Shown here: positions 302 through 53,034 of the stretch, one piece after another
How positions within the stretch are numbered: position 1 is the first letter of the stretch
How the letters are laid out: each line of letters begins with the position of its first letter
Source of the DNA: an uncultured virus (IMG/VR IMGVR_UViG_3300036987_000183)
Taxonomy: Duplodnaviria; Heunggongvirae; Uroviricota; Caudoviricetes
Virus record (IMG/VR): IMGVR_UViG_3300036987_000183
Direction: 5' to 3' (one strand)
Length of the DNA: 64,000 bases
Notes under the pieces: generated by a model
What the model saw: the letters and a program-made list of their open reading frames with translations, nothing else
The model's database searches: none
Told to the model about the DNA's origin: nothing
Program-made: the position numbers and the translations under genes

Positions 302-326
302 GCCACCTTAGCTCAGTTGGTAGAGC
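302..326 (+). repeat. att core, left copy (5' 25 nt of tRNA-Thr)
   Basis: GCCACCTTAGCTCAGTTGGTAGAGC identical to 45601-45625; followed by a second GGTAGAGC (327-334) instead of the anticodon arm. Confidence 0.92.
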
Positions 327-13686: not shown

Positions 13687-14820
13687 ATGAAATTCACGAT
13701 AAATCAAAAACTCTTCTGCGCCGCACTCTCCCGCGTCCAGGGCATCACCGGCAGCAGGCTCACCATGCCGATCCTGGCCAACGTGCTGCTCAGCACCTCG
13801 GCACCCCTGCCCTTACTCCACATCAGCGTCAGTGACCTGGAAGTCGGCTACACCACCGTCATCGACTGCAATGACATCGAAACACCCGGCAGCATCACCG
13901 TGCCGGCTAAAAAAATCTATGAAGTCGTCAAAGGAGCACCCACCGGAGAAATAAGCTTCTCGCTCGATCCCGCAAACAACCGGGTCACCATCGAAGCCGG
14001 AACATTCGTAACCACCCTGGCAGGTTTGCCCGCAGACGAATTTCCCGAAGTGAACAGGGTTGACGGGGAAGATCTCGAGCTCGATGCCGCCGCCCTCCTG
14101 CGCCTGATCGGCCACGTCGACTATGCCCAGTGTGCTGCCCCGGAAAAATACAACATCTGCGGAGTATTCCTGCAGATCAAAGACGATGACGAAGGGTGCA
14201 GCCGCCTCTACGCCGCCGCCACCGACGGCCACCGCCTGGCAGCCGACAGCGTGCCCCTGCCCGGAGATCCGCGTGTCATCCCGGCCGATCTCGCCAAAGG
14301 AATCATCATCCCCCGCAAGGGCATCGCCGAACTGAAAAAAATATCGCCCGAAGGCGTGTTGATCCTGCAGATCCTTGGTAACAACCTGTCCATCTCAACG
14401 GAAAACGAGACCTTCACCCTGCGTCTGGTCGACGGACAGTTTCCCGACATCCAGCGGATAATCCCGACAAAGATACTCGGCAGCGCCCATTTCAACCGGC
14501 AACCGCTGATCGATGCCCTCGACAGGGTGTCCCTGCTCAGTGAAGGCAAATCCCACGCGGTAACCCTCTCGTTTGACGACGGACATATCCAGCTCGATTC
14601 CCAGAATCCGGAGCTCGGAGAAGCGCATGACCGGGTTGCCGCCGCCCTCGAAGGTGAGCTGTCCTATCGCAAACTCAATGCCGCCTACCTGGTTCAGGCG
14701 CTCTCCGTCTGGGATTGCGGTGTAGTGCAGATCAACCTGGCCGGTGATCTCGACCCGATACTGGTAACGCCCTACGGCGAAACGGAGCCACTTGCCGTCA
14801 TCATGCCGTTGCGAGGATAG
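13687..14820 (+). CDS. dnaN: DNA polymerase III beta subunit (sliding clamp), phage-encoded
   Basis: 377 aa; MPILANVLL, ATDGHRLA, LVDGQFPD, C-terminal VIMPLR. Confidence 0.9.
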   Translation: MKFTINQKLFCAALSRVQGITGSRLTMPILANVLLSTSAPLPLLHISVSDLEVGYTTVIDCNDIETPGSITVPAKKIYEVVKGAPTGEISFSLDPANNRVTIEAGTFVTTLAGLPADEFPEVNRVDGEDLELDAAALLRLIGHVDYAQCAAPEKYNICGVFLQIKDDDEGCSRLYAAATDGHRLAADSVPLPGDPRVIPADLAKGIIIPRKGIAELKKISPEGVLILQILGNNLSISTENETFTLRLVDGQFPDIQRIIPTKILGSAHFNRQPLIDALDRVSLLSEGKSHAVTLSFDDGHIQLDSQNPELGEAHDRVAAALEGELSYRKLNAAYLVQALSVWDCGVVQINLAGDLDPILVTPYGETEPLAVIMPLRG

Positions 14821-19778: not shown

Positions 19779-19785
19779 ATTAGGT

Positions 19786-19813
19786 TTCATACTTCATCCT
19801 TCATCCTTCATAC
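19786..19813 (+). repeat. TTCATNN heptamer tandem array (x4)
   Basis: TTCATAC TTCATCC TTCATCC TTCATAC immediately after the terminase stop. Confidence 0.85.
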
Positions 19814-19837
19814 TTTTTATTTTTTCCGGAGGCAGAA

Positions 19838-20056: not shown

Positions 20057-22262
20057 ATGTCAAGGCTCCGCGAAATAGCACTATATGACGCCACGGTTCA
20101 TGCTTATCTCAAACTGTTTGATATGACCCCAGGGGCGTCCTGGACGCTTACAATGGAAAACCTGGTGATTCACCTGTCCAATGAAAAAGCAGAGTTACTG
20201 CGAAGGGTAACCGAGCTTGAGATCAGGAAAATGCCAGAACCTCTAGAGTTAAATATTGTCAAAATTAAAACCGAGACAACGGCTGGTACCGCCAAGGAGG
20301 AACGATGGACAACGAGAGAGACGCAATAGACAGGGATACCGGAACGAATGAGAAAAGTGCTATCCCGGTCAATTCGCTGGTTATGCCCTTTTCTCTGGAA
20401 ATATGGGAGAAAAAAACCATCACAGTTACAGCCGAAAATTATGCTGGAGCTGTTAAACAGGTTCCACGGGAATGCTCCTTCGAATCGGTACGGAAACAGG
20501 GTGATGAGTACGAAGATCGGTTGACCGAATATGACTGGTGTCACTTGTGCTGTCAGCCGATGCTCCAGAATAAAAATGGTCCGGTCGATAGGTGGGCAAA
20601 GATTGAGATCGACCGTGATGACGATTACCCCTTCGCAGGGGACTGCGTGCACGAATCCTGCGCTATTTCCCTGGGTAGGAAAATACTGGAAACCATGAGG
20701 ATATAACACCAGTTCAACCTTGGTAAGTGCACCTAACATAGAAAGAGCGAGGAGATTAAAAATGGAACTGACAAAAAAAGCAAGGGCTGTCGTTGATGCA
20801 ATTGAGGAATGCGGTGCAAGTGATAAGTTGACCCATGCCGTCACGTTGGCTACTGATCTGGCAGCAGACCTGGAGTTTATGGATCTGCATCATCTCGCAA
20901 TCGACAAAGGCTGGAAGATTCCGTCGCAGGAAAATGGTGATTTCCCGAAACATGCCTGGACGTGGTACTGGCGCAACTGTGAAGCTTATGAAAAAGACCC
21001 GTCCGTGGGCCGGCCGGTTGTGCCACATCGCAGTGGAGGTGGAATATTCCATGATGTTAAGAACCCACCGAGTATCCCGAGAGATAGACCGAGGGCATAG
21101 AATCTGGATCAGCGGAGGGCTTATGAGTGAGTACGGATGCACAGAATGTGAAGCATTGCCAGGGAGCGCTGTTTGCGAGAAATGCCAGCCTTCCGCTGTA
21201 TCGCCTAGTTCACCAGCCCCATGCCATGAGTGCCTATGTTGGGAAGGCCGCTGCACTCGTAGTAAAAGACTTTGGGACCAATGCGCATGGAAGAGTAACT
21301 ATGGATTGTTTGTGCCAAGAGAAAAAAGGCGACCCGCTAGGTAAATTATCTTTTAAAAAGGAGGATGACAATGAATGCAGTAGAAATCGTAAAACAGTTG
21401 GGCTATGAACAGATGAGAGTATTGCAGGAGTTGAAAAATAAACCCGACAGCGAAGGCTCTGTCCTCTGCAAGGATGCAGATTGCTCCTTCTCCGAACTCT
21501 TTTCTCTGGGTGAGAAAGGACTGATAGATGTGGGGATGGATCGGCTGGAACCGAAGCGAGTGCACCCTGCGTTGACCGACCTTGGCCGCGAAGTTCTGGC
21601 GCTCTGCGAGTCGGAAGGGATTGTTTAGTAAAGGTCTCACCCCCTATCCCATCCTAACTTTGTTAAAAAATTAGAGGGTTCCACATGAAAAATTGGAATG
21701 AACTTGATGGAGCAGCCGCAAAAAACTTAACCCCCTTGGCCTTAAAGGTATTTCACGAATACAAAGACCAACTCAAACAAGATGGACATACATGGGAAAA
21801 TGATGCCTCTGATATTTTACGTGGATACATTTGGGATGACATGGAAGATGACATTCAAGAGCCATAACGACAAGGGTCAGCTGGTTCCCTGCTGAGCCAG
21901 CTGACCATGAAAAATGATTTGAGCAAGGAGACTCGATGAAATTTCATTCGATCATGACGGCAGAGGTAAGAGTTGATTGTTACTCTGGCGAGACATGCGA
22001 CCAGCACCGAAAATATTTCGGCATGTACTGCGACGGTGACATGGAAGGCGGAGAGTTTGGAGAAGACAAGATCGTAATTAACCTGGCCCAGTTGCCACCA
22101 GGGGCAAAAGTGACTGTGGGATATCCCGTTTGCCCGACATGTGGAACTCCTCGTGAGGACTCCATGGAATTTGTGGAGGGCGTTTACAAGATCATCGGCC
22201 ATCCCGATAAATGCCAATGCGGTTTCGATTGGAAGAACTGGGCCGAAGAGGTATACGGATAA
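20057..22262 (+). other. Accessory hypothetical genes (20057-20329, 20305-20706, about 20762-21100, about 21123-21344, 21365-21628, 21685-21867, 21936-22262)
   Basis: Consecutive + strand small ORFs with RBSs, lower GC than the flanking core genes. Confidence 0.55.
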
Positions 22263-22276
22263 CACCTGCCGACCCC

Positions 22277-22309
22277 AGACCTGCCAGGTTTTCAAAACCT
22301 GGCAGGTCT
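22277..22309. repeat. Perfect 33-bp palindrome (REP-like), copy 1
   Basis: AGACCTGCCAGGTTTT-C-AAAACCTGGCAGGTCT; second copy at 36715-36745. Confidence 0.9.
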
Positions 22310-22370
22310 CATCCCCCCCATCCCTACCGCAAACTTTTTACAAATCCCCCCGAAAATGTAAAAAAACTTG

Positions 22371-22438
22371 TGCACGTGGTGCATGTGGTGCACGTGGTGC
22401 ACGTGGTGCAAGACTTTTCACTTTTTACGCCGTACCAT
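22371..22438 (+). promoter_or_regulatory. Candidate late promoter: 9-mer tandem array plus -10 element
   Basis: (TGCAYGTGG)x4+TGCA at 22371-22410; TACCAT at 22433-22438, 7 nt before ATG 22446. Confidence 0.6.
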
Positions 22439-22445
22439 CCGGCCC

Positions 22446-22688
22446 ATGGCACTCACCCCCCTTTATACCCAAGCGGAAATCGACGCCGAAATCACCCAGG
22501 CGAAACGCGATCTGGCTTCTGCCCGCCAGGCGATTTCGCGCAGCATCGGGACCGGAGTCAGCAACAGGGCCAGCATGAGAGAGCGGGTCGATGTCTTGCA
22601 GCGCCACCTGGAATGGCTCCAGAGTCAGCGCGCAGCCTTGCAGATCGGGCCGGGCGCTCAGGCTCATGTCGGGAGGCCTGCACGATGA
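22446..22688 (+). CDS. gpW-like head-tail joining protein
   Basis: 80 aa, helix-hairpin-helix pattern; directly before the portal with ATGA overlap. Confidence 0.65.
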   Translation: MALTPLYTQAEIDAEITQAKRDLASARQAISRSIGTGVSNRASMRERVDVLQRHLEWLQSQRAALQIGPGAQAHVGRPAR

Positions 22689-24352
22689 CTGGTTCTTGCC
22701 GCATAGGAAGAAGTTACCCCGCCGCCAACTACCATGGCCCGGCCATGGAAGCCGCTACCGTTTCCCGTTCCGCTGCCGGCGCGCTCGGTACCATGAGCAA
22801 CTGGGTCCCCCGCCGCCTCTCCTGGCGTGAAGAGGGTAGCCAGCGCGAAAAGGTCGCGCTCCGTTCCACCGACATCGCCGTCAATGACGCTCACGGCGCC
22901 AGCATTATCGACTCCATCACCATCAACACCGTCGGCACCGGACTCTGGCCCCGCTCCACTCCCAATTTCAAGCGGCTCGGAATTACCGAAGAACAAGCCA
23001 CCGAAGTCGCCGAGGCCATGGAATGGGAGTTCGAACAGTTCTCCCGAGAAGCCGACGCCCGGGGTGTCACCGATTTTTACGGCATCCAGGTGCAAAACAT
23101 CTGGGCGATGCTGGTCAAGGGGGAATTCATCAACCTCCCGCTGATGCTGCGCGATTCAGCCCGCCGCTATTCCCTGGCCCTCCAGACCATTGACCCCGCC
23201 CGCCTGCGCACTCCGGCGGTCTACGCCGCTTCCCCCGATATTCGCGACGGTATCCGCCTGGGCGAAAACGGCCAGGCAACCGGTTATTTTCTGGCTGATC
23301 CGGAAAACGGCCTGATCTTCTCCGGCGATTCCTACAACTACGAGTTTCAGGAGTTACCCCCCCGACGCGGGCACCGCCCGGTGGTCATACACAGGTTCGT
23401 ACCGAAAGAGCCGGAGCAGGCACGCGGAGTTCCGATCTTCGCCCCGGTAATGAAACTCTTCCGCGATAAATCCGATTACCTGGATTTCGAGCTGGTCGCC
23501 GCCATCGTCGCTGCCAACTTCCCCGTCTGGATCGAGAAGGGGAGCCTGTACGACGCAAACACCCTCCCCGGTGTACGCGTCGGCGCACCAATGACACCGG
23601 AAGGCGATCCGACCTACTACCACGAGCTCCGTCCCGGACAGGTCCATTACGGCAACCCCGGCGAGAAGCCCCACTTTCCCAGCTCGACCCGCCCCTCCGG
23701 CAACCTCCCGGCCTTCCTGGAGACAGTACTGCGAGCCATCGGTGCCGGCGGCGGCGGAATGCCCTACGAGCTGGTGGCCAAGGACTTCAGTAAAACAAAC
23801 TACAGCTCCGCCCGGGCCGCACTGGAAGAGGCCTGGCGCGTATTCGGCTTTAACCAGGATTGGCTGGTCAAGGGTTTTTGTCAGCCGGTCTGGGAGATGG
23901 CCTTCGAAGAGGCCTGGCTCAGGGGTCGGATCAAGTTCCCTAAGGGCGCACCCGACTTCTACGCCGCCCGAGCTGAATGGTGTGCGGCGCAGTGGACAGT
24001 CCCCGAGCGTACCACCCTCGACCCGGTCAAAGAGATGGTCGCTCACGTCATGGGCAAGCAAAACAACGTCGCCACCGACGCCGATTTCTGCGCCAAACGT
24101 GGAAAAGACTACGAAGCCGTCTACCAGCAAAGAAATCGCGAGCGCAAACTTGCCAAGGATCTGGATCTCCCCGAGGTCAACGACTCGACCGTCTCAAAAA
24201 AACCGGAAAAACCGGAAGACCCGCAGAACCCATCGGAGTCATCCTCCTTCGCCAAGGCTCCGGCGGACACGTCGGCGGACATGGTAGCCAACATCATCGC
24301 CGAAGCAGTCCGGGAAGAAGTAAAGGCCGCCATGCGCACGGAGACAGCATGA
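22685..24352 (+). CDS. Portal protein, lambda family
   Basis: TVGTGL, IRDGI, EQARGVP, DFSKTNYSSARAAL, LDPVKE motifs. Confidence 0.9.
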   Translation: MTGSCRIGRSYPAANYHGPAMEAATVSRSAAGALGTMSNWVPRRLSWREEGSQREKVALRSTDIAVNDAHGASIIDSITINTVGTGLWPRSTPNFKRLGITEEQATEVAEAMEWEFEQFSREADARGVTDFYGIQVQNIWAMLVKGEFINLPLMLRDSARRYSLALQTIDPARLRTPAVYAASPDIRDGIRLGENGQATGYFLADPENGLIFSGDSYNYEFQELPPRRGHRPVVIHRFVPKEPEQARGVPIFAPVMKLFRDKSDYLDFELVAAIVAANFPVWIEKGSLYDANTLPGVRVGAPMTPEGDPTYYHELRPGQVHYGNPGEKPHFPSSTRPSGNLPAFLETVLRAIGAGGGGMPYELVAKDFSKTNYSSARAALEEAWRVFGFNQDWLVKGFCQPVWEMAFEEAWLRGRIKFPKGAPDFYAARAEWCAAQWTVPERTTLDPVKEMVAHVMGKQNNVATDADFCAKRGKDYEAVYQQRNRERKLAKDLDLPEVNDSTVSKKPEKPEDPQNPSESSSFAKAPADTSADMVANIIAEAVREEVKAAMRTETA

Positions 24353-24361
24353 TTTCAATAA

Positions 24362-24389
24362 TTCATCATTCATCCTTCATAATTCATCC
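24362..24389 (+). repeat. TTCATNN heptamer array (x4)
   Basis: TTCATCA TTCATCC TTCATAA TTCATCC between portal and protease. Confidence 0.85.
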
Positions 24390-24410
24390 TTACCCCAGCC
24401 CGGAGGCAGC

Positions 24411-25702: not shown

Positions 25703-25760
25703 GGATGAAGGATGAAGGGTGAAGTTTTTTCATAATTCATACTTCAAAATTCATAATTCC
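25703..25760. repeat. Inverted heptamer arrays (GGATGAA)n...(TTCATAA)n
   Basis: Seen directly between protease and decoration genes. Confidence 0.85.
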
Positions 25761-25780
25761 AAAAAAAAGGAGTACCGAAC

Positions 25781-26434: not shown

Positions 26435-26501
26435 GGATGAGTTATGAAGGATGAAGGATGAAGTAAAAAACCTTTCATAATTCATAATTCAAAATTCATA
26501 C
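26435..26501. repeat. Inverted heptamer arrays (GGATGAA)n...(TTCATAA)n
   Basis: Seen directly between decoration and capsid genes; similar to 25703-25760. Confidence 0.85.
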
Positions 26502-26524
26502 TTTAAGAAAGAGGAGAAAGACAA

Positions 26525-30271: not shown

Positions 30272-30600
30272 ACAACACGGAAGGCGGTTCAATGTTCAAG
30301 GTTCAAAGTTCAAGGTTGAAAGGTATTTTCAACTCAAAACTCAAAACTCAAAACTCAAAACTGCTTTTAGTGTTTTTAGTGGTTTTTCTCGCCGCCTGCA
30401 CCGCTCCAGTCGAGACACTGATCCCGACTGCTATCCCCTGCCCGCAGCCGCCAGCTCTGATCCGCCCGCACCTGGCCCTCCAGGATCTTCAGCCCGTGGC
30501 AGCGCCTTCCGAGGTGCTCCGGGCCTACGTCATCACCGTCGAGCAGCTCACGGGTTACGCCTGCGAGCTGGAAACAATTATCAATGGGTACAGGAGATAG
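30268..30600 (+). CDS. Putative o-spanin lipoprotein (Rz1-like)
   Basis: Lipobox LAAC followed by Pro-rich segment; its 5' part overlaps a heptamer repeat array (30286-30362). Confidence 0.6.
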   Translation: MNNTEGGSMFKVQSSRLKGIFNSKLKTQNSKLLLVFLVVFLAACTAPVETLIPTAIPCPQPPALIRPHLALQDLQPVAAPSEVLRAYVITVEQLTGYACELETIINGYRR

Positions 30601-30603
30601 ACG

Positions 30604-30963
30604 ATGCAAAAACTAATCGAGGGTTATACCCGCCACTCATACTCCGGCATTATCGAAGTGGCATCAAGTATCACGCCGCTGGCAGCCGCCGCCGTTGATG
30701 TAGGCGAGTTTATCAATTGTTCCCAGTTCTCCCGCCTGCACGGCACCGTCTTCGCCGATCAGGGCGGCACCCTCAACATCCACTTCAGCGGCGACGGGGT
30801 CAACATCGACTACACCCGGACCATCTCTGTCGGGGCCTCGGACAAGGTCAACTCAGCCTGGGACCAACTGGTGATTGCTCCCTATGTCAAGTTCGAATAC
30901 ATCAACGGCTCCACAATCCAGGGTGCGTACCGCTTCTACGCCTTTGGCCGGTCCATGAGCTAA
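30604..30963 (+). CDS. Hypothetical beta-rich virion protein
   Basis: AGGAG RBS; beta-strand-like pattern; immediately upstream of the DGR target. Confidence 0.6.
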   Translation: MQKLIEGYTRHSYSGIIEVASSITPLAAAAVDVGEFINCSQFSRLHGTVFADQGGTLNIHFSGDGVNIDYTRTISVGASDKVNSAWDQLVIAPYVKFEYINGSTIQGAYRFYAFGRSMS

Positions 30964-30973
30964 GGGGAAAGAG

Positions 30974-32575
30974 ATGCCAATACAAAGCGATGGAAAAATC
31001 AAATCAGACCCGACCGGCCTTTTGCTCGGCTCCTCCAGTGCCCTCTCTCCCGCGGTCAACTCTATCGGCTCCCCGGGCAGCGCCGGCTTCGGCGTCGGGA
31101 TCGCCCCGGAGACCGCCCTGCCTCCGGGTATGGTCCCCCTGTATGGGTACACCGAACCGACCCACTTCAATTTCGGCAACTACCAGTACAAAGACGGCTC
31201 CGTCATGTGCTGGGTACCGAAATACTACTACAAGATCGGCACCGGAGCCAACGGGCTGCCGGCCAACCGGGTCGACATTGCCGGCGTCCAGACCTTCGCC
31301 ACTACCGCCCTGGCCAACAATGCCGGCTACGCATTGCACCGGGCCTTTATCGATGGCGGGGCGGAAAAAGACGGCTTCTTTGTCGACAAATACATTGTCA
31401 GCAAAAACGCCTGGGGTACCGGTTATATTGCCAGTTCTATCAAAAACGGCCTGCCGCTTTCCACCAACAGTGCCCACAACCCGATCGGAGACCTGACCGC
31501 CGTCAGCGGGGCCAACTATTATTACTCGGCCCTCACCGCTGCAAGGGCCCGGAGCGGACTCAACGGCGCCGTCGACGCCAACTCACCCTTTTTCTGTACG
31601 AGCCGCTTCATCTATGCTGCCCTGGCGCTGCTGTCCATGGCCCACGGCCAGGCCTCAGCCAATGGTCAGTTTTGCGGCTGGTTCGACGCGACGAAGAATT
31701 TTCCGAAAGGGTGTAACAATAACGCCCTGGCGGATGAATCCGACGCCACCGTCACCTATCAATCGGACGGCTACTCCAACTGTGCCAAAACGGGCAGCGG
31801 TAACCCTTTTGCCAAAACAACCCACAACGGCCAGGCCTGTGGTGTCGCTGACCTTAATGGCCTGATGTGGGAGATCAGCGCCGGGCTTACCTGTATCGCC
31901 GCAAGTAAAACAATTACTGGTGCATCAAAAGCCAATCCCTGTGTGATAACCATTGTCGGACATGGCTACACAACCGGCCAGGTTGCAATGATCACCAGCG
32001 TCGGCGGCATGACGCAACTCAACGACAAAATCTACACACTCACGTCGATCAACGCGGACACCTTCTCGCTGAACGGTGTCGACTCTTCCGCTTACACTGA
32101 TTTCACCACGGGTGGATCCGTGACCGTCGGCACATTCTACGCCGCTAAATCGGCGACAAAGATGCGCGACTTCACCTCCGGCAACTCAGCCGCCACCGAT
32201 CACTGGGGGGCAACCGGCGTAGCCGCCATGATGGATGCCTTCGCCATGCCGCTCCTGGCAGCGTCCGGCGGAACAGCGATTGCACAGCGGTTTGGGAATG
32301 CTGCTAACCAGGTCCTCTCCGAGGCAACCTCCGGCGCCGGATGGCTTCTTGCTGGTCTCGGCATCCAGAAAGACAGTGCCGGAATTTCTTCAGCAGGAAC
32401 CAACCTTTTTGGCACCGACTATTTTTATGAGTATATCAGGAATGAGCTATGCGTCATCTCCGGTGGGATCTGGAACGACGGTTCGTCTGCCGGCGTGTGG
32501 TGCCTGGCTGTGAGCTCCGCTCGGACGAACTCGGGCAGCTCTGTGGGGTTCCGGTGTGCCTGCTACCCTGCTTAA
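30974..32575 (+). CDS. DGR target protein (CLec/FGE-like fold, probable receptor-binding protein)
   Basis: GFFVDKY, GVADLNGLMWE, C-terminal SGG.W...AGVW...VGFRC; VR at the 3' end. Confidence 0.9.
   Translation: MPIQSDGKIKSDPTGLLLGSSSALSPAVNSIGSPGSAGFGVGIAPETALPPGMVPLYGYTEPTHFNFGNYQYKDGSVMCWVPKYYYKIGTGANGLPANRVDIAGVQTFATTALANNAGYALHRAFIDGGAEKDGFFVDKYIVSKNAWGTGYIASSIKNGLPLSTNSAHNPIGDLTAVSGANYYYSALTAARARSGLNGAVDANSPFFCTSRFIYAALALLSMAHGQASANGQFCGWFDATKNFPKGCNNNALADESDATVTYQSDGYSNCAKTGSGNPFAKTTHNGQACGVADLNGLMWEISAGLTCIAASKTITGASKANPCVITIVGHGYTTGQVAMITSVGGMTQLNDKIYTLTSINADTFSLNGVDSSAYTDFTTGGSVTVGTFYAAKSATKMRDFTSGNSAATDHWGATGVAAMMDAFAMPLLAASGGTAIAQRFGNAANQVLSEATSGAGWLLAGLGIQKDSAGISSAGTNLFGTDYFYEYIRNELCVISGGIWNDGSSAGVWCLAVSSARTNSGSSVGFRCACYPA
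32447..32562 (+). repeat. DGR variable repeat (VR)
   Basis: 116-bp ungapped match to 33022-33137; 17 of 19 mismatches are at TR adenines. Confidence 0.95.
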
Positions 32576-32592
32576 GGGAGTGATAACGACCG

Positions 32593-32997
32593 ATGACGCA
32601 GTCCAGTGGTGAAGTTCATTTAAATCGCAAGTTCATGGAGCTGATAAAACTCCTGAACATTTACCTCAACCACTTTCCAAAGCACGAGAAATTCGCGCTC
32701 AGCAACAGGATCCGGAACACCGCCTATGAAATCTACGACAATATTTCCGAGGGCCAGAAGCGATACTTGAAAAAGACCACGCTGAGCAACCTGGACATTG
32801 CCCACGAGAAGCTCAGGATGCAGATCTACCTCGCCTACGAGCTGGGGTATTTCCGATTCAAGGACGGCAAGGAAACCGACAAAACACCAGAAGAGCTCGA
32901 AGGCCACCGCTTTGGCTCCCTCAGTCTCTTGGTGGACGAGCTGGGCAGGATGATCGGCGGCTGGATTAAGAAGATGAAGGACGATAGCAGATGGTGA
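32593..32997 (+). CDS. avd: Accessory variability determinant (four-helix bundle)
   Basis: HFPKHEKFALSNRIR...LRMQIYLA...ELGRMIGGW; lies between VR and TR. Confidence 0.9.
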   Translation: MTQSSGEVHLNRKFMELIKLLNIYLNHFPKHEKFALSNRIRNTAYEIYDNISEGQKRYLKKTTLSNLDIAHEKLRMQIYLAYELGYFRFKDGKETDKTPEELEGHRFGSLSLLVDELGRMIGGWIKKMKDDSRW

Positions 32998-33021
32998 AGT
33001 AGAAGAACGGGCACCACATTA

Positions 33022-33137
33022 CTATGCGTCATCTCCGGTGGGAACTGGAACAACGGTTCGAATGCCGGCGTGTGGTACCTGAATTTGAACAACTATCGGA
33101 CGAACTCGAACAACAATGTGGGGTTCCGGTGTGACTG
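33022..33137 (+). ncRNA. DGR template repeat (TR)
   Basis: AAC/AAT-rich non-coding copy of VR between avd and RT. Confidence 0.95.
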
Positions 33138-33259
33138 TCTCTCTGGCCTCAAAACGCGCAGGCGTATAGTGGAGATACAGGGGTGTGGTGTCCGGCGTTA
33201 CGCGAAATCAACCAGCCGGACTTTTTAGTAGGACAATCCGAACATCAGGATGGCACTTT

Positions 33260-34306
33260 TTGAAACGACACGGCAATCTTTTCAACGAAATATTTACCCG
33301 GGAAAACCTGCACCAGGCCTTCCTCGATGCCCGCAAGGGCAAACGGAAGAAGCGTGCCTGCTTCGATTTCGAGACAGCACTCGGCCGCAACCTGGAGATG
33401 CTCTACCAGGAGATCCACTCAGGCACCTACCGCCCGCGTCCGTATTATACCTTCAAGGTCTACGAGCCCAAGGAACGCATCATCCACGCCCCGGCGTTCC
33501 GCGATATCGTCGTGCAGCACGCGATCTATCGGATCATCTATCCGCTCTTTAACAAGACATTCATCGATCAATCCTTCGCCTGCCGGAACGGCATGGGCAC
33601 TCACCGGGCCAGCGACTACACTCAGCGAGCTCTGCGCAAATGCGATCCCGACAGCTACACGCTGAAACTGGATATCCGGAAATTCTTCCACAGTATCGAC
33701 CGATCCATCCTGAACTGGCTGCTCGAACGAAAGATTAAAGACCAGCGACTGGTTGACCTGATGATGCTCTACGCCGAATGCGACGGACCGGCCGGGATCC
33801 CGATCGGCAACCTCCTCAGCCAACTATATGCCCTGGTCTACCTCAACCCTCTGGACCATTACGTCAAGCGGATCCTCGGGGTGAAAAACTACGTCCGCTA
33901 TGTCGATGATTTCATCCTGTTCGGCCTGACCCGCGAGCAGTGCCTCGAATACCGGGAGCGGATCATCATTTACCTGGATAAAGCGCTCCGCCTGACACTC
34001 TCGAAATCCACCATCCAAAAGGTACGCCGTGGCGTCAATTTCGTCGGCTACCGCACCTGGCGACACAAGCGCTTTATCCGAAAGTTCAGCCTGTACCGAT
34101 TCAAGAAAGCGCTGCGCACCGGCAACGCCAGATCAATAGCCTCGATCCTTGGACACGCCTGTCGCACCAACTCACTGCCGCACATGCTGCGGCTCATCAA
34201 GGAGAGCAGCAATGGCCAAAATATACCGCTTCCAAAAAGCCTCGGACGAATACACCAGCTACGGCCCGCAAGGCGAAGGGATCACCGAGCTCTGCACGCT
34301 GCCTGA
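33260..34306 (+). CDS. DGR reverse transcriptase
   Basis: KRHGNLF start (TTG 33260), PKER.I.AP.FRD.VVQHA, LKLDIRKFF.SI, GIPIGNLLSQ, RYVDDF, FVGY. Confidence 0.95.
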   Translation: MKRHGNLFNEIFTRENLHQAFLDARKGKRKKRACFDFETALGRNLEMLYQEIHSGTYRPRPYYTFKVYEPKERIIHAPAFRDIVVQHAIYRIIYPLFNKTFIDQSFACRNGMGTHRASDYTQRALRKCDPDSYTLKLDIRKFFHSIDRSILNWLLERKIKDQRLVDLMMLYAECDGPAGIPIGNLLSQLYALVYLNPLDHYVKRILGVKNYVRYVDDFILFGLTREQCLEYRERIIIYLDKALRLTLSKSTIQKVRRGVNFVGYRTWRHKRFIRKFSLYRFKKALRTGNARSIASILGHACRTNSLPHMLRLIKESSNGQNIPLPKSLGRIHQLRPARRRDHRALHAA

Positions 34307-34643
34307 TGGGTTCACGTATGTTTCGGTACCGGATGATGGGAAATTGTCCGACGAGCAGCCGAAGCAGATCCAGATCGAGGAGCCGATCCTCACTGACGAG
34401 CTGAAAGAGCAGATCAAGGCAACGAGCCCACACTGCCAGCTGATCTATACCAGGATGCAGGAGAAGATCCGCGAGAAGTATTGCTCAGAAGACGAGATGT
34501 ACATGACCCGGATCAGCGTCGGGCAACTCGCCGGCATGTATCAGATGCAGCCGGGCGAGCCGGAGCTGATAGTGGCATACCAAACCTTCATCGAGGGGAT
34601 CAGGCAATGGGGAAAGTCAGAGCGGGCAAAATTCGGACTGTAA
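34212..34643 (+). CDS. Hypothetical protein (overlaps the RT 3' end)
   Basis: AAGGAG RBS with ATG at 34212. Confidence 0.65.
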   Translation: MAKIYRFQKASDEYTSYGPQGEGITELCTLPDGFTYVSVPDDGKLSDEQPKQIQIEEPILTDELKEQIKATSPHCQLIYTRMQEKIREKYCSEDEMYMTRISVGQLAGMYQMQPGEPELIVAYQTFIEGIRQWGKSERAKFGL

Positions 34644-35048
34644 TTAAACGCTATCTGAAAAACATCGCCATCTGGATCGATCAGGGCTGCAACGTCGTAC
34701 TGTTTGCCGGATCCCCTGACGAGACAATCAGCAGCAGAATCGGCCGCAATCAACATATCTGGATCTGCCGGTTCGCGAAACGGGTGGTTGATATGGTCTT
34801 TGGCCTCGGGCACTGCGAACGGAGCATCGAGCACGAAGAGTGCCGGAAAGGCGAACTGTAACCCCATGATAACCGGCTTCAAAAGAGAGCGCCGAGGCTC
34901 AGGATTCCGCGTAGCTGTCCAGGTCGATCATTCCTCCTGGGGGCATGGTGAGGCGGCAACAATCCGGGCAGCAAAGAAGCTGGCCAAAACCGAAGCAGAA
35001 CGTAAAGCGGCGAGGCGGCCGGAAACTTTAGTATGGAGAGCGGAATAA

Positions 35049-36707: not shown

Positions 36708-36714
36708 CGCCCTG

Positions 36715-36745
36715 GACCTGCCAGGTTTTCAAAACCTGGCAGGTC
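36715..36745. repeat. 31-bp palindrome (REP-like), copy 2
   Basis: GACCTGCCAGGTTTTCAAAACCTGGCAGGTC. Confidence 0.9.
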
Positions 36746-36763
36746 TGATCTTGAAAGGTCACC

Positions 36764-45600: not shown

Positions 45601-45676
45601 GCCACCTTAGCTCAGTTGGTAGAGCAATTGATTCGTAATCAATAGGTCACCAGTTCGACTCTGGTAGGTGGCTCCA
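45601..45676 (+). tRNA. tRNA-Thr(CGT); first 25 nt are the right att core
   Basis: Full cloverleaf: GCCACCT/AGGTGGC acceptor stem, ATTGA-TTCGTAA-TCAAT anticodon arm, GTTCGA T-loop, encoded CCA. Confidence 0.96.
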
Positions 45677-45724: not shown

Positions 45725-46563
45725 TGACGCAGATATTGACGCAGATGTTATATAACGAATCAACTGCACTCCCTACACTGGTGCTTTTGCTTAGTCGCTG
45801 ACGCTTACACGCAAACCTCACCAGACGCATCCTCCCTTGTCCACACAAGCTCGGCTGAGTGAGCTAAGATGACCTTCTTCCCAATAGAAATGTATCCCAG
45901 ATAGCAACCTTACCCTGAGTATTTAGTCTTTATTTTTCATAGGCTATTACTATAATGTCTTATATATCATTAGAGTACGCAACTAGCTTCATATCCTATC
46001 GATATCATTATAAATATTGTCATATTCCATGTGCAGTATTGGTAACACGCTGAATAATAGACCATTTGCTATATATGGGTGTATGTGGAAGAAGTACCAC
46101 TATATATGGTTTTGTGGAGACGTCCGTTCAATCTCAATCTCGCCAAAAAAGAGAGGTATGGCGTGTGATCAGGTGGTTGTACCGGCAGAGAGGCAGCAAG
46201 TAAGAAAAGCAGATTGCGGTTTCAATTTCATTTTTATATATTACCCGAGGCAGAGGTATTAAGATATCAGACTTGAATTGACCAAGGTTCCGACCCCGCC
46301 CCTTGTTTCTGAGCTTTAAGAGGTTGTAGCTCTCCAAGGCATAGGTAGGTATGCTTCAGCTGGATATCTCCTGTCAGATAGCTAATATAGGTTGTGAGGT
46401 ATGGTAAATACTTTTTCGGTCACTCCAGATCATTTTGTAAAAGACCACAAAATGATCTTTCGTGATCCGAGCCAATAAAACCTTGTAGCTATTTGAAATG
46501 TAAGGGTTATCTGGTAGCAGTAGTGACGTTGATTTGCTGCGTTAAGCGTCAATATCTGCGTCA
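45725..46563. repeat. Pair of exact 18-bp inverted repeats (45725-45742 and 46546-46563)
   Basis: TGACGCAGATATTGACGC / GCGTCAATATCTGCGTCA. Confidence 0.85.
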
Positions 46564-46650
46564 AGTTTTGAGTTGGTTCTGTAACTAGCTGATTTATATA
46601 CCTAATAATACTCAGGCAATAGATTACTAATCAATTGCTTGAATTGAGGA

Positions 46651-47877
46651 GTGTCAAATATGCTTTTTGAGTACGGTAAAAGACTTGATCAATTAGATTA
46701 TGAAAGACTCTGGACTGAAAAGAATTGGTATTTCAGCGATGCCATTATCATGTTGACGAGTTATGAGATGGAGATTAGAGGCTTTTATAGCTTGGATGAC
46801 TCAAAGCTAACATATGCTAAGATCCATGGAAAGTATGAAAGCTATTTGTTAGAGAGTATGCTGGAAAAGTTGTTTGAGTATAATGACGGAGTAGATCCTG
46901 ATCTAAAGGCAAGTTATGCCTCAGAAATTTCTGATCTGACCACAGTCAATCCAAGCCGTTCAACTTTCAATAGGTATACATTCCTGAATTTCTTAGAAGC
47001 TAATTATCCAGGCAACATTGACATTGATAGGCTAAAGAGGTTTTTGTCAGGTGAAGAGGCTCCATTAAACACCAAACCTCATGCATCAAAGGTAGAGGAG
47101 CAAAGCCGCATAGTCGTTCAAACTACCAATAGTGATTTGCTGAATAATCAAGGAAGCGTAGATAGCTCTGGTATAACACACATCAGAGGAACTGGTGCAG
47201 ATGCATCACATACCTTAGGTGCAGCAGCTTTAGACGGTCATAAGTATTGTTTCGAAAGGATTACTCAGAGCTGGAAATTAAGGTTCATGGATATTGAGTT
47301 GAACGGCGTAAAAGATTTGGTTGGTATGGACTATATACAACTGCTGCTCAAAAACCCTGGGATTCCAATTGGTGTCTACGAGATACAATCCATGTTAAAT
47401 CCTATAGGGATAAAGTCTCCTGAAGGTAGAAGAAGGCCAGAGCTTGAGATTTTTGAAGGTCACACGACTGCTAAATTAGACAATAATAATACCTCCAAGA
47501 ATAAAGAGACCAGAAGCAGCAAATCCAAATCATTAGAGAACTTAAAAAGAAGGCTCCAAAAGTTGTCACAAGAAAGAAACGAGCTTGATTCAGACTATGA
47601 TCATATTGAAATTGAAGCAATTGATAACGAATACGCCAAGATAGAAGCCGCAGTGGATAATATCCTCTATGCAAAGAATGATGATCCAGAAATAAAAAAT
47701 AACCGTGACAAGGTTGCCAAAGCTATTAAAGCTGCCATAAAAAATATTAGTGGCCTCAAAACAACGGATGGCCAACCCAGTACACCTCTCAGCAACTTCT
47801 TGACCCAACATATTAAAACTGCAAGTGAATGTGTATACAACCCTCCAACAATAAACCCTCCTGATTGGTCATTCTAG
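46651..47877 (+). CDS. Hypothetical protein, possible winged-helix transcriptional activator
   Basis: 408-aa ORF; C-terminal GMDYIQLLLKNPG...RDKVAKAI...IKT..C.Y.P resembles island regulators. Confidence 0.55.
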   Translation: MSNMLFEYGKRLDQLDYERLWTEKNWYFSDAIIMLTSYEMEIRGFYSLDDSKLTYAKIHGKYESYLLESMLEKLFEYNDGVDPDLKASYASEISDLTTVNPSRSTFNRYTFLNFLEANYPGNIDIDRLKRFLSGEEAPLNTKPHASKVEEQSRIVVQTTNSDLLNNQGSVDSSGITHIRGTGADASHTLGAAALDGHKYCFERITQSWKLRFMDIELNGVKDLVGMDYIQLLLKNPGIPIGVYEIQSMLNPIGIKSPEGRRRPELEIFEGHTTAKLDNNNTSKNKETRSSKSKSLENLKRRLQKLSQERNELDSDYDHIEIEAIDNEYAKIEAAVDNILYAKNDDPEIKNNRDKVAKAIKAAIKNISGLKTTDGQPSTPLSNFLTQHIKTASECVYNPPTINPPDWSF

Positions 47878-48027
47878 TATTATCAATGCAAGCGACGACC
47901 TTAAAAGTCGTCAAACGAAAATATAACTCGTCCTTATAAGGTAGAGGCAGAGCGAAGCAAACGACAGCATCCATGGCAGTCTGTCAGTGCAAGCCGAACC
48001 TACTATACTTCTAAGGAGATAACACAG

Positions 48028-48423
48028 ATGGACAACAAACTCAAAACACTCACCTTCCCCCAGACCAGAAACGCATTACTGCTTTACGAAGCAGTCGCCA
48101 TTGCACTCGAAGACGCAGGGTTCATGGATGACAACAAGAAGATCAACAAGGCCATCGAGGCCCTGACGCCTAAGGACGATGTTACCAAGGTCCTGAAGCA
48201 GCTTCAGGGGTATGGCTACAGAGACTATCTCGTGGAAAAGGAAGCAGGCCGAGCCGTGGACTCTGCCGAGGCGAAAGCCGCTCACATCAAAGATTACGTC
48301 TCTGCCAGGTTCAAGAAGCACATGTCCAACCCGAAAACAGGTGTTAAGGCAACCAAGATGTATAACGATGCTTACCCTTCCGTCGTAGCTGAAAACCCTT
48401 CTGATGACACTCCAACGGCATAA
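48028..48423 (+). CDS. Hypothetical protein
   Basis: Strong TAAGGAG RBS; followed by GAGAGGGG/CCCCTCTC hairpin. Confidence 0.65.
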   Translation: MDNKLKTLTFPQTRNALLLYEAVAIALEDAGFMDDNKKINKAIEALTPKDDVTKVLKQLQGYGYRDYLVEKEAGRAVDSAEAKAAHIKDYVSARFKKHMSNPKTGVKATKMYNDAYPSVVAENPSDDTPTA

Positions 48424-48921
48424 GGTTGTCATTACTACATTGCCTACATAACCACCAACACTGAGAGGGGCTTGTCCCCTCTCTCTACCTATGATTAAGG
48501 AGAATAAAGTGAGAGAACTATTACCAAATACTTTGGCGAGCGTAGCAACGATGCTCTGATCATTCATAGAGATGGCAAGGACTGGGTATCGTCCAGAAGC
48601 CTTTGTGACCTCATGGGAGTGGTTGATGAGTATTATTTGGTATTCGACCAAAGAACGTGGCCTGAGGTGAACCTTACCGAGGAGGGCAAGTGTAAGTTCA
48701 CTGCTGAGGGAGCACATCTACCCTGTCCAATTTGGTTCGTTTCGGAGACTGGCTTCTGGAAGATAGTTGCAAAGTCAAACTCTTCCTGGCCAGCGAGGTT
48801 CCGTGCATCATTCCTGCCGACAGTATTCGAAGGTGGACTTTAAGTGTCCTGAAGTATCAATACTTTGAACGTGACGAAGGGGGGGAGGATTACGCTCTCC
48901 CCTTTTGTATACGGAGCCACC

Positions 48922-50595
48922 ATGAAACCAAAATACTCAGAATATGACAATTACAGATGGATCAATTGTAACCGATGGAGTACCGCTAAGGAGGTGGAGG
49001 CTTTAGTTGAATATCTGGTACAGGGGATTGCTTCAAGGAAGGGGCATGGCTACCGGATCAATATGACCGCCCTGGTGTTGGACCTCTACCAATCATATTT
49101 GTGCGACCCAGAACAGTATCTGGCCTATAGTCGGCGTGAAGTTAGTTATCTTAATGTCGGCAGTGACCACCCCTATATAAAGAATCACAACATCAAATAT
49201 CAGTACTTATTGAAGTGCGTCGATTACCTCTATGGTGATGGTTTGATTGAGAATCATGAAGGTGGCTATTTCCGCGATGATAAATCGAATAAGATTATCT
49301 CTTTTGCCAGTAGGATAAGACCGCTTAAAAGTCTTATGTCTGTGGTTGAGGAGTATGGGGTCACTCCTGAGATGATAGACGACTTTGCGCCACTGGATGT
49401 AATAATACTTAGGGGCAAAGAGGACGAAAAAACTGGTATAAAACCTGAGAAGAGGTACCCCAGGAACAAAGTTACGACCAGGATGGTGACGCTGATACGC
49501 CAGTACAACTCATTGCTTGAACGGTCTCAGATTGATGTTGACATTGAATGTCTAACGGATAAAGACCGTGATGAGCTGGTTAAGAAGCTGGCAGATATTG
49601 ACGGTCTTAAGCGCATTGTTCTGCGTTTGTCAAACAAATCAGTTTATCGGGTATTCAACAATGGCAGTATGGAACAAGGTGGCCGGTACTATAAGGCTTG
49701 GTGGATTAGTGCGCCTAGCACAATCAGAAAGTATATTACCATCCAGGGTGATCCTACTGTAGAGCTGGACTTCTCAGCCATGCACGTCCATTTGCTTTAT
49801 GCGGTCAAAGGTGTCAACTATGCTGATAAAAAGGAAGATGCCTATACCTTAGCTTCAGGAGCGCACACTCTTGCAAATCCAAAAGATGATCGGGCCTTAA
49901 ACAAGCTCATACTCTTGACAGCATTCAACGCTAAGTCGTCAGAGTCAGCAGCTTCAGCCGTTTATGATGATCTAAGGACAGAAGGCAAGCTATATCGGTA
50001 CAGCATTCAAAACCATGATCGTATCAATGCCAAGCTCTCACTGTTGAAACAAAAGCACCCTGTCATATCTGATATGATAGCTGATGACTACGGCCTAAAG
50101 CTCCAATACTATGATTCTAATGTGATCGAGAGGGTGATTGATCATTTTACCGCTATAGGAATCCCGGTGCTAACCGTTCATGATTCAGTTATATGTCAGG
50201 CTCAACATGAAGAGCTAGTTAGAAATGTGATGGTCCGATACTTCTATCAGGTAGTCGAAAATCTCTTAGCTCTCAGCATTAGACCAACACCTTTGTACTC
50301 AAGAGCAGGATTCATCCTAAGTCATCTAAATAGCATCAGGTCATATAGGACCGGAAGCATAAGGCTTCCGTTAGCGTCTAAGCTCAATATTGTGAATCCT
50401 TCAAGATATCATGGACGTATAACTGATACTATAGCTAACAGTTTGATCGTTAAGAGTACAGGTAGAGCCAATATTTGCTCTAAGAAGTGTAGTCATCATG
50501 CTAGACAAGAGCATAAACTAAAGTATATACCGAGCATAAAACTAGAGCTACAGGAGCTAACAGAAGCAGGAATCAGCATACTAAGGATTAAATGA
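48922..50595 (+). CDS. Family-A DNA polymerase/T7-RNAP-fold polymerase-like protein
   Basis: GGRYY, motif A ELDFSAMH, motif B-like RALNKLILLTAFN, LQYYDS, motif C LTVHDS. Confidence 0.55.
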   Translation: MKPKYSEYDNYRWINCNRWSTAKEVEALVEYLVQGIASRKGHGYRINMTALVLDLYQSYLCDPEQYLAYSRREVSYLNVGSDHPYIKNHNIKYQYLLKCVDYLYGDGLIENHEGGYFRDDKSNKIISFASRIRPLKSLMSVVEEYGVTPEMIDDFAPLDVIILRGKEDEKTGIKPEKRYPRNKVTTRMVTLIRQYNSLLERSQIDVDIECLTDKDRDELVKKLADIDGLKRIVLRLSNKSVYRVFNNGSMEQGGRYYKAWWISAPSTIRKYITIQGDPTVELDFSAMHVHLLYAVKGVNYADKKEDAYTLASGAHTLANPKDDRALNKLILLTAFNAKSSESAASAVYDDLRTEGKLYRYSIQNHDRINAKLSLLKQKHPVISDMIADDYGLKLQYYDSNVIERVIDHFTAIGIPVLTVHDSVICQAQHEELVRNVMVRYFYQVVENLLALSIRPTPLYSRAGFILSHLNSIRSYRTGSIRLPLASKLNIVNPSRYHGRITDTIANSLIVKSTGRANICSKKCSHHARQEHKLKYIPSIKLELQELTEAGISILRIK

Positions 50596-51366
50596 GCTCT
50601 AGAGGAGTAAGGCAGGCCTTACTCTGAACTATAGAGCTATATATACGATGATAATACAAGAGAGCAATCTACTGGATAATATAGAACTAGACACTAAGTC
50701 ACCCCCCCCTCTCTCTATAACTAGCGGAGATTCGCGCTAAACCACCGAATTTAAACGGAAAGCGACTAAACTCTGTTTTGGTTCGAGAGTCGCCGCCGGT
50801 TCGCGCCGGGCCGGTTCATCCCGCGCAAGAATAGAACCTGCTAGCCGGTGTTTACTTGAAGGTGGTAGTTCTAGTAGGTCGAGCAGTAAAGTCTGACTGT
50901 AAGCCTGATCTGAGCGCCTGACTAACGGAATTAAGGGTGAAAAGGTCCTGTCATTTCAAAAAAGACTTAACCTCTATATACTAAGTCTGAGCTAGATTTA
51001 AATTGAACGTCTAGTGTCACCACTCTCACCGAAATAATAGCAATCCATTCCGACCTATCCCCGACCCCGCTTTGATTCCGAGACCATCCCTACTTAGACC
51101 AGGAGCAACCATGTCATTGCGGCAATCATGGATCGTGAAGAGTTTTTTGAAAAGACTTGGTTGGAAGGTAATGCGGTAATGCTCAGTTTTCTTCCTGTAA
51201 ATAGCATTTCATGACCAGTTGCTAGATAAACCATTGTATATTATGGTGTTAGATGATTTCAGCCCAGGACCTGGGGGGAAGTGCACTTGCCACCAAAGAA
51301 AGTAACTCTACCATATGGTAAATAACATCTAATCATTTCTGTCAACAGTCAAAAACCTGCTAGATA

Positions 51367-51711
51367 TCATTTCACTCGCTTATTCACATTCCCTACCAGC
51401 TTCAAGATGCATCCCCGAAGCTCACCATTCTTGATTCTTCTATACGCCTGTAGTAGCTGATCCTCTTCACCTGTGAGTCTGACAGACTGGATAGGTGCCG
51501 TAGTAAAGAAATCTGATACCGATACCTTAAGAGCATTTGCTATCTGCTGGAACTTAAGGATATTAAGCGTAGTCTGACCATTCTCGTATTTCTGTATCTG
51601 CTGAAAAGTAACACCTACCATCTCAGCAAGCTTCTCTTGAGAAAGACCGGCTTGCTGCCTTAACAGCTTGATCTTCATACCCAAATCTATAGAGCTGACC
51701 ATATCACCCAT
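51367..51711 (-). CDS. XRE-family regulator
   Basis: LSQEKLAEMVGVTFQQIQKYENG. Confidence 0.88.
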   Translation of the reverse strand: MGDMVSSIDLGMKIKLLRQQAGLSQEKLAEMVGVTFQQIQKYENGQTTLNILKFQQIANALKVSVSDFFTTAPIQSVRLTGEEDQLLQAYRRIKNGELRGCILKLVGNVNKRVK

Positions 51712-52158
51712 AGCGCACCATCCTTGTCGGAAGATTACAACTATGAGTTGTGTAGCGCCATGGATTCACACTAGAAATGATATAACTTGAAAGTACAAAC
51801 TCTTGGTGGTATAAAAAGCAGGTTATAAATCCATCTTAATATAGTTGAATGGCAACTTTATGGGAAATTTGCTGACCTGCTAAACAGGGACCAGAAAGCC
51901 CACGTCGATAGCATGAAGCTATAGGTTTCGGCTTTTTCTATATGGGATGTCAGATAAAGTGTCATGGGCCTTAAGGGGTTAGTGTGCGCGACCTTATAAA
52001 CGGAATTGGTTGTTTAATTGCTTTCGTAGCTATTGTTATGGCTATTGCCAGTATACCCCTCTTAGGACCAATACCAGTTACTGTCGTATTTTTCATAGGC
52101 TGTGCGTTGTATAGATCTAGGTGATGTGTCCTAAAATCAATCAAATGTGGAGGAGAGC

Positions 52159-53034
52159 ATGGCTTTAATATTATGTGGCGAGTGTGGCAAAACCATATCT
52201 GACAAAGCACATTCATGTCCTGGATGTGGTTACCCATTGCAACCGTCAGATGCAAATCGAACCATGCAAATCGATTTAAAGACTTTTAGCAAGGAACAAT
52301 TATGGGCCAAAGCGTACAATATGCAGTACAAATACAAAGACAAAAAGGCTGATATCCCAACCGCTATTGAAATATATAATTATATCATTGAACATTTTAA
52401 TGGTAGTAAAGAATCTGATAATGCGAAAGTTCAGTTAAATATATTAACAACACAATCCCCAAGAACACAGACTGTGGCTAGTGATAGTGCACCTGAAATC
52501 AGCAAATCTATAGATATTCAAAAAAACAACCAAAGCCTCAAAGAATATTACAAAATACTCGGTCTTGAAGAAAGTGCAAGCATTGAAGAAGTAACGTCTG
52601 CATATAATGAATTATCAGACAAGTGGAATCCCATAAAATATGAAGTCCATGAACGGAGCATGTTATCCTTTGCCGAGCATGAGTTTAAGGAAATTCATGA
52701 TGCATATAATAGAATAAACCAACAGCTAACAGGAGACTATCAAGGAAGTAATATTGTAGAAGATGAAGTAGATAACAATGATAGTAAAAGCAGTAGCCCT
52801 ATATTTGCATTAGTGTCAGTAGTAACAGCAATATTTGCAATAATTATTTTGTATCAATTATTTTATGGAGGCCATGGCGGCCTAGGATCACAATATTATA
52901 AAGGGAATATTGATGCTTTTGTTAATGACAATGTCGAAAGGGTAAACTCGATCTCAACTGTTATTAAAATATTTGCAGTTCTTTTCGGAATGTGGTTTGT
53001 AATGTTAATTTCAAGAATTGTCTGTAAGAAATAA
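52159..53034 (+). CDS. Zinc-ribbon plus J-like domain membrane protein
   Basis: CGECG...CPGCG; YYKILGL...AY..L..KWNP (degenerate HPD); C-terminal TM helices. Confidence 0.7.
   Translation: MALILCGECGKTISDKAHSCPGCGYPLQPSDANRTMQIDLKTFSKEQLWAKAYNMQYKYKDKKADIPTAIEIYNYIIEHFNGSKESDNAKVQLNILTTQSPRTQTVASDSAPEISKSIDIQKNNQSLKEYYKILGLEESASIEEVTSAYNELSDKWNPIKYEVHERSMLSFAEHEFKEIHDAYNRINQQLTGDYQGSNIVEDEVDNNDSKSSSPIFALVSVVTAIFAIIILYQLFYGGHGGLGSQYYKGNIDAFVNDNVERVNSISTVIKIFAVLFGMWFVMLISRIVCKK

Follow-up and report, generated by a model that had tools for sequence, protein, structure and literature searches.

A prophage diversity-generating retroelement with a putative GA/GA hairpin in place of the perfect stem after its variable repeat

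The 64,000-nt stretch of DNA analyzed here (the window, whose numbering is used throughout) comes from an uncultured tailed virus (IMG/VR record IMGVR_UViG_3300036987_000183) and contains a diversity-generating retroelement (DGR), in which a target gene ending in a variable repeat (VR) is followed by avd, a template repeat (TR), a spacer RNA (Sp) and a reverse transcriptase (RT) gene (Table 1). We are confident that this is an intact phage DGR of avd-TR-RT layout and that it resides in a complete temperate tailed prophage of a probably Geobacteraceae-like host. In line with established DGR biochemistry, RT and Avd would bind an avd-TR-Sp RNA, on which a TR:Sp duplex would serve as the cis primer for a copy with errors opposite A, and the cDNA would then replace the VR from the initiation of mutagenic homing site (IMH), rewriting about 15 codons. 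Compared loci are labeled L001 to L310, metagenome runs X8 to X11, and P0001 is one homologous protein.

Table 1. Features of the retroelement and of the prophage that carries it, in window coordinates.
Feature	Coordinates	Strand	Description
attL	302..326	+	25-bp copy of tRNA-Thr 5′ end; prophage left end
DGR target gene	30974..32575	+	533 aa; C-type lectin (CLec; FGE-type) fold by predicted structure; C-terminal VR
Inserted beta domain, FCCH-like	31895..32137	+	Target residues about 308-388; Pfam E1_FCCH; structure match
VR	32447..32562	+	Target codons 492-530; from repeat comparison with TR
IMH	32542..32575	+	17 bp identical to TR (11 G+C), fixed A/C at 32559, then diverging from TR until the stop
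Putative target hairpin variant GGGAGTGATAACGACC	32576..32591	+	Sequence reading; folding predicted
avd	32593..32997	+	134 aa; Pfam bAvd, PHROG Avd
TR	33022..33137	+	28 adenines, 11 in-frame AAC/AAT codons; 110/116 identical in L125
Sp	33138..33259	+	Covarying helices, one pairing with TR 3′ end; 120/122 identical in L125
DGR reverse transcriptase	33260..34306	+	348 aa from TTG; YVDD at 33899-33910; BPP-1 bRT match
143-aa partner gene	34212..34643	+	Overlaps RT 3′ end; no named family
attR (45601-45625), in intact tRNA-Thr(CGT)	45601..45676	+	Prophage right end

The best solved-structure match of the RT was BPP-1 bRT (173 bits, E 7e-50), with the next RT at 71 bits and group II intron RTs in the PDB scoring no higher than that, and its catalytic and fingers residues aligned to those of bRT at the D, R, GIPIG..SQ and YxDD positions; it fell below the NCBIfam cut-offs for the group II, retron and DRT models. 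The YVDD reverse transcriptase that the initial annotation placed alongside the repeats is therefore of the DGR class, and the neighboring avd that it named is supported by matches to Pfam bAvd (56 bits, cut-off 40, E 6e-15) and PHROG Avd (E 2e-22); NCBIfam DivGenRetAVD reached 70 bits, under its cut-off of 80. An RT start at GTG 33185 was not upheld: because the bRT alignment begins at the very next residue after TTG 33260, the latter is most likely the start. In the spacer, the covariation score over 30 sequences was 0.371, compared with 0.131 when shuffled (0 of 500 shuffles reached the observed value) and 0.03-0.09 when slid, with the TR:Sp helix 74% paired and two short helices 100% paired, these helices having been chosen after the alignment was viewed. 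Pairing of TR with Sp is also present in the bRT-Avd-RNA structure (bioRxiv 2023.10.23.563531). An Rfam scan of 30900-34700 returned no credible family and Rfam RT motifs were found in none of 16 related loci; RT-10 of Weinberg 2017 is a TR-RT spacer motif, distinct from the hairpin after the VR that is described below (PMC5737381).

VR and TR aligned over 116 bp without a gap and with 19 mismatches, of which 17 fell opposite the 28 TR adenines and two opposite the other 88 TR bases (Fisher p = 3e-11). The changed adenines read G in seven cases, C in six and T in four; nine of the 11 AAC/AAT codons were changed and held 14 of the 17 adenine changes, and the VR frame stayed open up to the target stop codon at 32573-32575. 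The gap-free alignment, the count of 17 in 28, its concentration in AAC/AAT codons and the open frame had all been reported in the initial annotation and hold here, with one amendment that came from the related loci. We examined 203 sequences (202 loci and the window), of which 147 had an adenine-specific repeat pair and 120 remained after collapsing identical flanks; 107 of these 120 non-redundant loci, the window copy included, had an RT or Avd at least 48% identical to that of the window and are referred to as the clade. The A-to-C difference at TR 33134/VR 32559 was present in 104 of the 107 clade loci, and in 92 of the 107 it was the sole change within the last 9 nt. Judged from these alignments, it is a fixed end marker that distinguishes IMH in the VR from IMH* in the TR and lies outside mutagenesis, so the mutagenic count becomes 16 of 27 adenines. 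As in other DGRs, then, IMH and IMH* are distinct, with a 17-bp constant block followed by the fixed A/C and by divergence. The changed-adenine fraction of the window (0.61) is ordinary, the median among the 107 being 0.58 and 40 of them having an equal or higher value. Both non-adenine changes are T to G (TR 33085 and 33094 against VR 32510 and 32519) and neither occurs in the VR of L125; across the 107 loci, T was the base changed in 43 of 65 non-adenine differences, 32 of them T to G, which may point to a second kind of error that these RTs make at U, at a low rate. That DGRs show changes at bases other than A is already known (PMC5758913).

Fourteen nucleotides past the VR end begins the stem of the putative hairpin at 32576-32591, in which a GATA loop (32582-32585) would be closed by two Watson-Crick pairs, followed outward by GA (32578-79) opposite GA (32588-89) and by two further pairs. 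The loop is a 4-nt GRNA loop at 4-34 bp after the VR, as in the published DGR element; a GC-rich perfect stem of 7-10 bp that would pair on both strands is absent from the window. The core is GTGATAAC, closed by T-A, and from the VR end to the avd start 29 of 30 nucleotides are identical between the window and L125. Among the 107 clade loci, the VR was followed by GANNGRNANNGA in 70, by a GNA variant in five, by a perfect stem of at least 5 bp in 20, by an imperfect stem in seven and by nothing of the kind in five, and none of the 13 distant loci among the 120 had these hairpin forms. The same pattern was found after the TR in 1 of 120 loci, on the reverse strand in 0 of 120, and in 0.10 per 120 shuffled sequences. 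Matches collected without any pairing requirement had both inner pairs Watson-Crick in 70 of 72 cases, and these inner pairs covaried among the GA-type loci (GC/GC in 54, AC/GT in nine and GT/AC in seven). The loop was GATA or GGTA in 68 of the 70, the core was exactly GCGATAGC in 49, and at least two outer pairs were present in 51.

The median distance to the IMH marker was 24 nt for the GA type and the perfect-stem type alike. On a FastTree RT tree of 117 rows, we counted 10 changes between the two types, with the well-supported branches forcing at least nine changes of the perfect-stem label; L136 carries TC opposite GA, in contrast to the GA opposite GA of its sisters L130 and L017. The notion that the imperfect hairpin is a decayed element was rejected because most relatives share the GA form. 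A second purine-purine step, two pairs further out, was matched in 18 loci, not all of which have Watson-Crick pairs between the steps; it was noted in the window (32574-32593), L125, L047, L082, L086 and L135, and L125, with GA/GA at both steps, shows a repeating zipper of two pairs and two GA.

When viral contigs were scanned starting from the motif, 20 of 107 and 5 of 11 matches had a VR directly upstream, compared with 0 of 37 for a control pattern; 27 of the 107 matches had short flanks only, and the matches were partly redundant. These scans reached a second DGR group, with RTs 32-37% identical. A pattern scan of metagenomes gave three loci, L043, which is identical to the window, and L041 and L042, which have no similarity to it. 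Away from DGRs (L204-L310, viral contigs), the GA-flanked mini-hairpin 16-mer lay outside long open reading frames (ORFs) in 18 of 37 distinct contexts, compared with 4 of 28 for the control, and it could serve mobile elements more generally as a single-strand DNA signal.

We rather favor the view that 32576-32591 is the target-recognition hairpin of this DGR, a GNNA mini-hairpin over sheared tandem G·A pairs that would form on the single-stranded sense strand without a cruciform; its folding and function are inferred from the conserved pattern. For the large phage DGR group as a whole, the balance tips slightly toward a target signal that is a strand-specific single-stranded DNA hairpin of this make, interchangeable with perfect stems. 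The sense strand, which would be the strand paired by the cDNA, would be exposed as lagging-strand template or by transcription, and the hairpin would form there and keep the strand open. It should fold on the sense strand only, and not as a cruciform, because the complementary strand would carry TC opposite TC. The d(GCGATAGC) DNA mini-hairpin melts at 71 C, its class is far weaker as RNA and is missed by standard folding models, and for the GCGAAAGC octamer the melting points are 76.5 C (DNA) and 39 C (RNA) (PMC13037366); tandem GA-AG in DNA stacks strongly (PMC8163305). BPP-1 needs an 8-bp GC-rich stem and a GRNA loop after its VR, disruption of which cut tropism switching more than 1000-fold, and the choice between one-strand hairpin and cruciform was left undecided for it (Guo 2011; PMC3240598). 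In E. coli, BPP-1 editing was higher with the cDNA-complementary strand as lagging-strand template (PMC12875486).

A number of observations speak against a sense-strand GA/GA hairpin. A nearest-neighbor model gave the window hairpin -0.2 kcal/mol on the sense strand (z 0.54) and 0 on the antisense strand, and 19 of the 70 GA-type loci have fewer than two outer pairs. The A-T-closed octamer in the melting table has no melting point, and the T-A-closed octamer of the window is not in that table (PMC13037366); the perfect BPP-1 stem was cleaved as a cruciform on both strands, and orientation had no effect (Guo 2011; PMC3240598). The five clade loci without any hairpin have a changed-adenine fraction of 0.59, the same as the rest, and in L045, where the right hairpin arm of a second VR is gone, 23 of the 39 adenines of that VR differ all the same. 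The motif is not specific to DGRs, as 77 of the 107 scan matches lacked any DGR part, and the loci are related and were selected by likeness to the RT, Avd or target of the window, so they are not independent. Finally, the right GA overlaps the avd start codon in 27 of the 70 GA-type loci.

This last point bears on a different explanation, which we consider unlikely, namely that the DGR is real and the GA-flanked motif works in RNA or translation, as avd ribosome-binding site, start codon or leader hairpin, rather than as a DNA target signal. In its favor are that overlap, the frequent occurrence of tandem GA pairs in RNA and the likeness of GAG to the Shine-Dalgarno core; however, the earliest possible avd start lies at least 16 nt past the loop in 14 of the 70 loci, and in the second DGR group the avd-like match starts about 130-210 nt downstream. 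The near-uniform GATA/GGTA loops are moreover GRNA and not of the RNA GNRA type, position and loop agree with the BPP-1 DNA element, and the octamer is much the more stable as DNA (PMC13037366). The near-invariance of GAGCGRTAGCGA in 53 of the 70 loci, beyond what structure alone needs, together with the weak predicted folding, would suit a duplex-DNA protein-binding or nicking site, with a spaced direct or inverted sequence recognized by Avd, RT or a host factor, for which no G·A pairing would be needed. We find such a site quite improbable, since the inner pairs change compensatorily and sister loci swap the GA/GA step for Watson-Crick pairs of many sequences.

In its architecture the element is of the BPP-1 type, as the initial annotation had proposed and as the repeat pair, Avd, RT and target-fold matches bear out. 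It shares with the BPP-1 DGR (mtd-avd-TR-brt; architecture B1 of Wu et al. 2018, PMC5758913) the gene order, adenine-specific VR/TR differences in AAC codons, IMH/IMH*, TR:Sp pairing and a GRNA loop shortly after the VR. Unlike BPP-1, the window has a hairpin with tandem GA/GA and without the perfect GC-rich stem of 7-10 bp, the constant part of its IMH is 11/17 G+C and not GC-only, its target, which has an FCCH-like insert, resembles TaqVP in fold more than Mtd, and its cassette lies between lysis and tail genes. The FGE-type CLec fold is common to TaqVP (Thermus aquaticus, PDB 5vf4) and the window target, which differs from TaqVP in its length of 533 aa, its inserted beta domain and its being prophage-encoded. 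With the hairpin/cruciform of Guo et al. 2011 (PMC3240598) the window shares the 4-nt GRNA loop, the sense strand and the position 4-34 bp after the VR, whereas its stem has only two contiguous Watson-Crick pairs. The GA-type loci also resemble the DNA mini-hairpins GCGNNAGC (Hirao; PMC13037366) and tandem sheared GA pairs (PMC8163305), given the GCGATAGC core in 49 of them, although the GTGATAAC core of the window, unlike the measured GCGATAGC, is outside the melting table; no link to DGRs was found in the accessible text of these two papers. The closest cultured phage by RT, Pseudomonas phage Bise (OR683401; 59% identical), has the same avd-TR-RT order, but a perfect 6-bp stem with a GGTA loop, a different target and a baseplate-type tail.

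The DGR itself is ordinary, and one published feature, the perfect stem, is replaced by a conserved GA/GA alternative. Wu et al. reported inverted repeats in 127 of 372 DGRs by MFOLD (PMC5758913), and the myDGR rule asks for a 7-10 bp stem (PMC6602519); both the rule and the MFOLD screen would miss the GA/GA form. A literature search, whose reach did not extend to figures, closed journals or bioRxiv supplements, found no description of a GA/GA hairpin after the VR and no paper joining DGR, hairpin and sheared, and met the literal 12-mer only in unrelated papers; the word hairpin was not found in the accessible text of Roux 2021 or of the further DGR papers searched.

With regard to activity, the window was compared with L125, whose RT is 95% identical. 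The two TRs differ at six sites, and each VR matches its own TR at all six, from which it follows that homing has occurred since the window and L125 split; between the two VRs, 15 of the 27 shared adenines differ, as do 2 of the 83 other sites. On this comparison, one-way transfer from TR to VR is historical. In P0001, which is 89% identical to the target and of the same length, VR differences lay mostly at TR-adenine codons. The initial annotation had suggested past or ongoing activity from the high substitution fraction: past homing stands, on the evidence of L125, and the fraction was rejected as proof because it is average among the relatives. We likewise rejected as a signal the end of an X9 contig inside the VR at 32541, the records being filtered, so that a hole proves nothing. 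No VR variants were seen in the X8, X10 and X11 contigs spanning the VR, and the VRs of L001 and L043 are identical to that of the window; all of these possibly represent one population, rare variants are lost in contigs, and ongoing activity did not show in them. It is conceivable, though we hold it at below even chance, that the element is intact and dormant in this lysogen, its VR being the frozen product of earlier homing, as the same VR in every contig seen would suggest; on the other hand, all genes are open, the data are assembled contigs only, and identity to L125 is 95-98% in TR, Sp and hairpin, as against 81-93% in the flanking coding DNA. In L002, L008, L010, L027, L005 and L007 the target and hairpin are kept and avd-TR-RT is wholly or partly gone, apparently by deletion, and the clean DGR-free relatives L019, L028 and L032 are without the hairpin.

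The CLec fold that had been suggested for the target was borne out by an AlphaFold2 model built from a 93-row alignment (pLDDT 86), which matched TaqVP best (Z 28.0, root-mean-square deviation (rmsd) 3.0 over 298 aligned residues, 22% identity) and also Mtd (Z 11.6) and TvpA (Z 11.3); the VR lies in frame at the 3′ end of this CLec-fold gene. The inserted beta domain scored 31.6 bits to Pfam E1_FCCH (cut-off 29.5), matched the UBA6 FCCH domain (Z 14.3, rmsd 1.1) and also resembles a phage tail-tube accessory domain; it is missing from some relatives, the targets of L028-L032 skipping residues about 311-389. The 143-aa gene had a tblastn match in 103 of the 202 loci, and an atlas search with it returned unnamed viral clusters only. 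Because it directly follows the target in DGR-free relatives (about 22-28 nt after it in L019-L021, L028, L032 and L034), avd-TR-RT appears to sit inside a target-partner gene pair. The target is likely a virion-exposed adhesin or receptor-binding protein working with the 143-aa partner, the label of receptor-binding protein being drawn from the predicted fold and the gene neighborhood. That it is a head, collar or surface-adhesion protein instead of the host-receptor-binding protein strikes us as doubtful. The cassette does lie between the spanins of the lysis genes and the tail terminator, away from the tail-tip genes, with separate 1247-aa and 358-aa genes coming after the tape measure, and profile and model searches found no tail-anchoring domain at the target N terminus; against this, the target C-terminus matches PHROG tail families, its structural neighbors are annotated as tail collar or fiber proteins, and the DGR of phage Bise comes after baseplate and tail genes. 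Just upstream of the target, a 119-aa gene (30604-30963) has a weak match to PBSX XepA (E 3e-5, far below the cut-off) and a homologue in only 5 of the 202 loci.

A complete prophage had also been claimed, and we found its ends as two exact copies of a 25-bp attachment (att) repeat, absent from 100 shuffles, the right one within an intact tRNA-Thr; by sequence, these bound a prophage of 45.3 kb. A serine recombinase gene lies at 451-1974, and the prophage further encodes repressors, primase, clamp, terminase, portal, capsid, holin, endolysin, spanin, tail terminator, tube and tape measure. Its att site is the 5′ end of the tRNA and its integrase a serine recombinase, the more usual pairing being tRNA 3′ ends with tyrosine integrases. 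The host is probably Geobacteraceae-like, to judge from the named homologues found for the target, for the RT and for a flanking MucR. The window sequence is present in coal and groundwater metagenome runs, more than one of which could have been its origin. Replication genes include a D5-type helicase/primase part (9904-11577), a separate zinc-finger primase gene (12179-13651) and, after them, a phage copy of the DNA polymerase III beta clamp (13687-14820). The listed 713-aa portal ORF (22211-24352) matches portal proteins from near residue 184-194, so the real start is probably later, and the small ORF at 22368-22688 may be a head-tail joining gene. A palindromic 41-bp repeat, with two copies 93% alike (22273-22313 and 36710-36750) and also present in L125, is a candidate repetitive extragenic palindrome (REP)-like or protein-binding site. 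Runs of a 7-nt TTCATCC/TTCATAA-like unit, some inverted, lie between late genes (19785-19822, 24361-24398, 25728-25765, 26459-26510 and 30325-30362). The region right of attR (46000-64000) is low in GC (0.32-0.46) and encodes MucR and a response regulator as well as an HNH-HIT fusion (58002-58979) and an Mrr nuclease (59444-60352); it looks like a defense island.

More than 30,000 DGRs have been catalogued (PMC8144416), and as one more member the DGR of the window adds little; the point of interest is its hairpin variant. As to how mutated cDNA enters the VR, Guo 2011 decided for neither hairpin nor cruciform, and single-strand access at the replication fork was proposed in a study of 2026. 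A natural signal that pairs on one strand only would offer a direct and cheap test of which strand and which structure are read. If our reading is true, natural variation shows that a cruciform is dispensable and that the exposed sense strand is where recognition takes place; some of the DGRs reported without an inverted repeat (66%) would carry a signal hidden from folding programs. The variant would then correct hairpin detection in DGR tools and inform target design for DGR-based mutagenesis.

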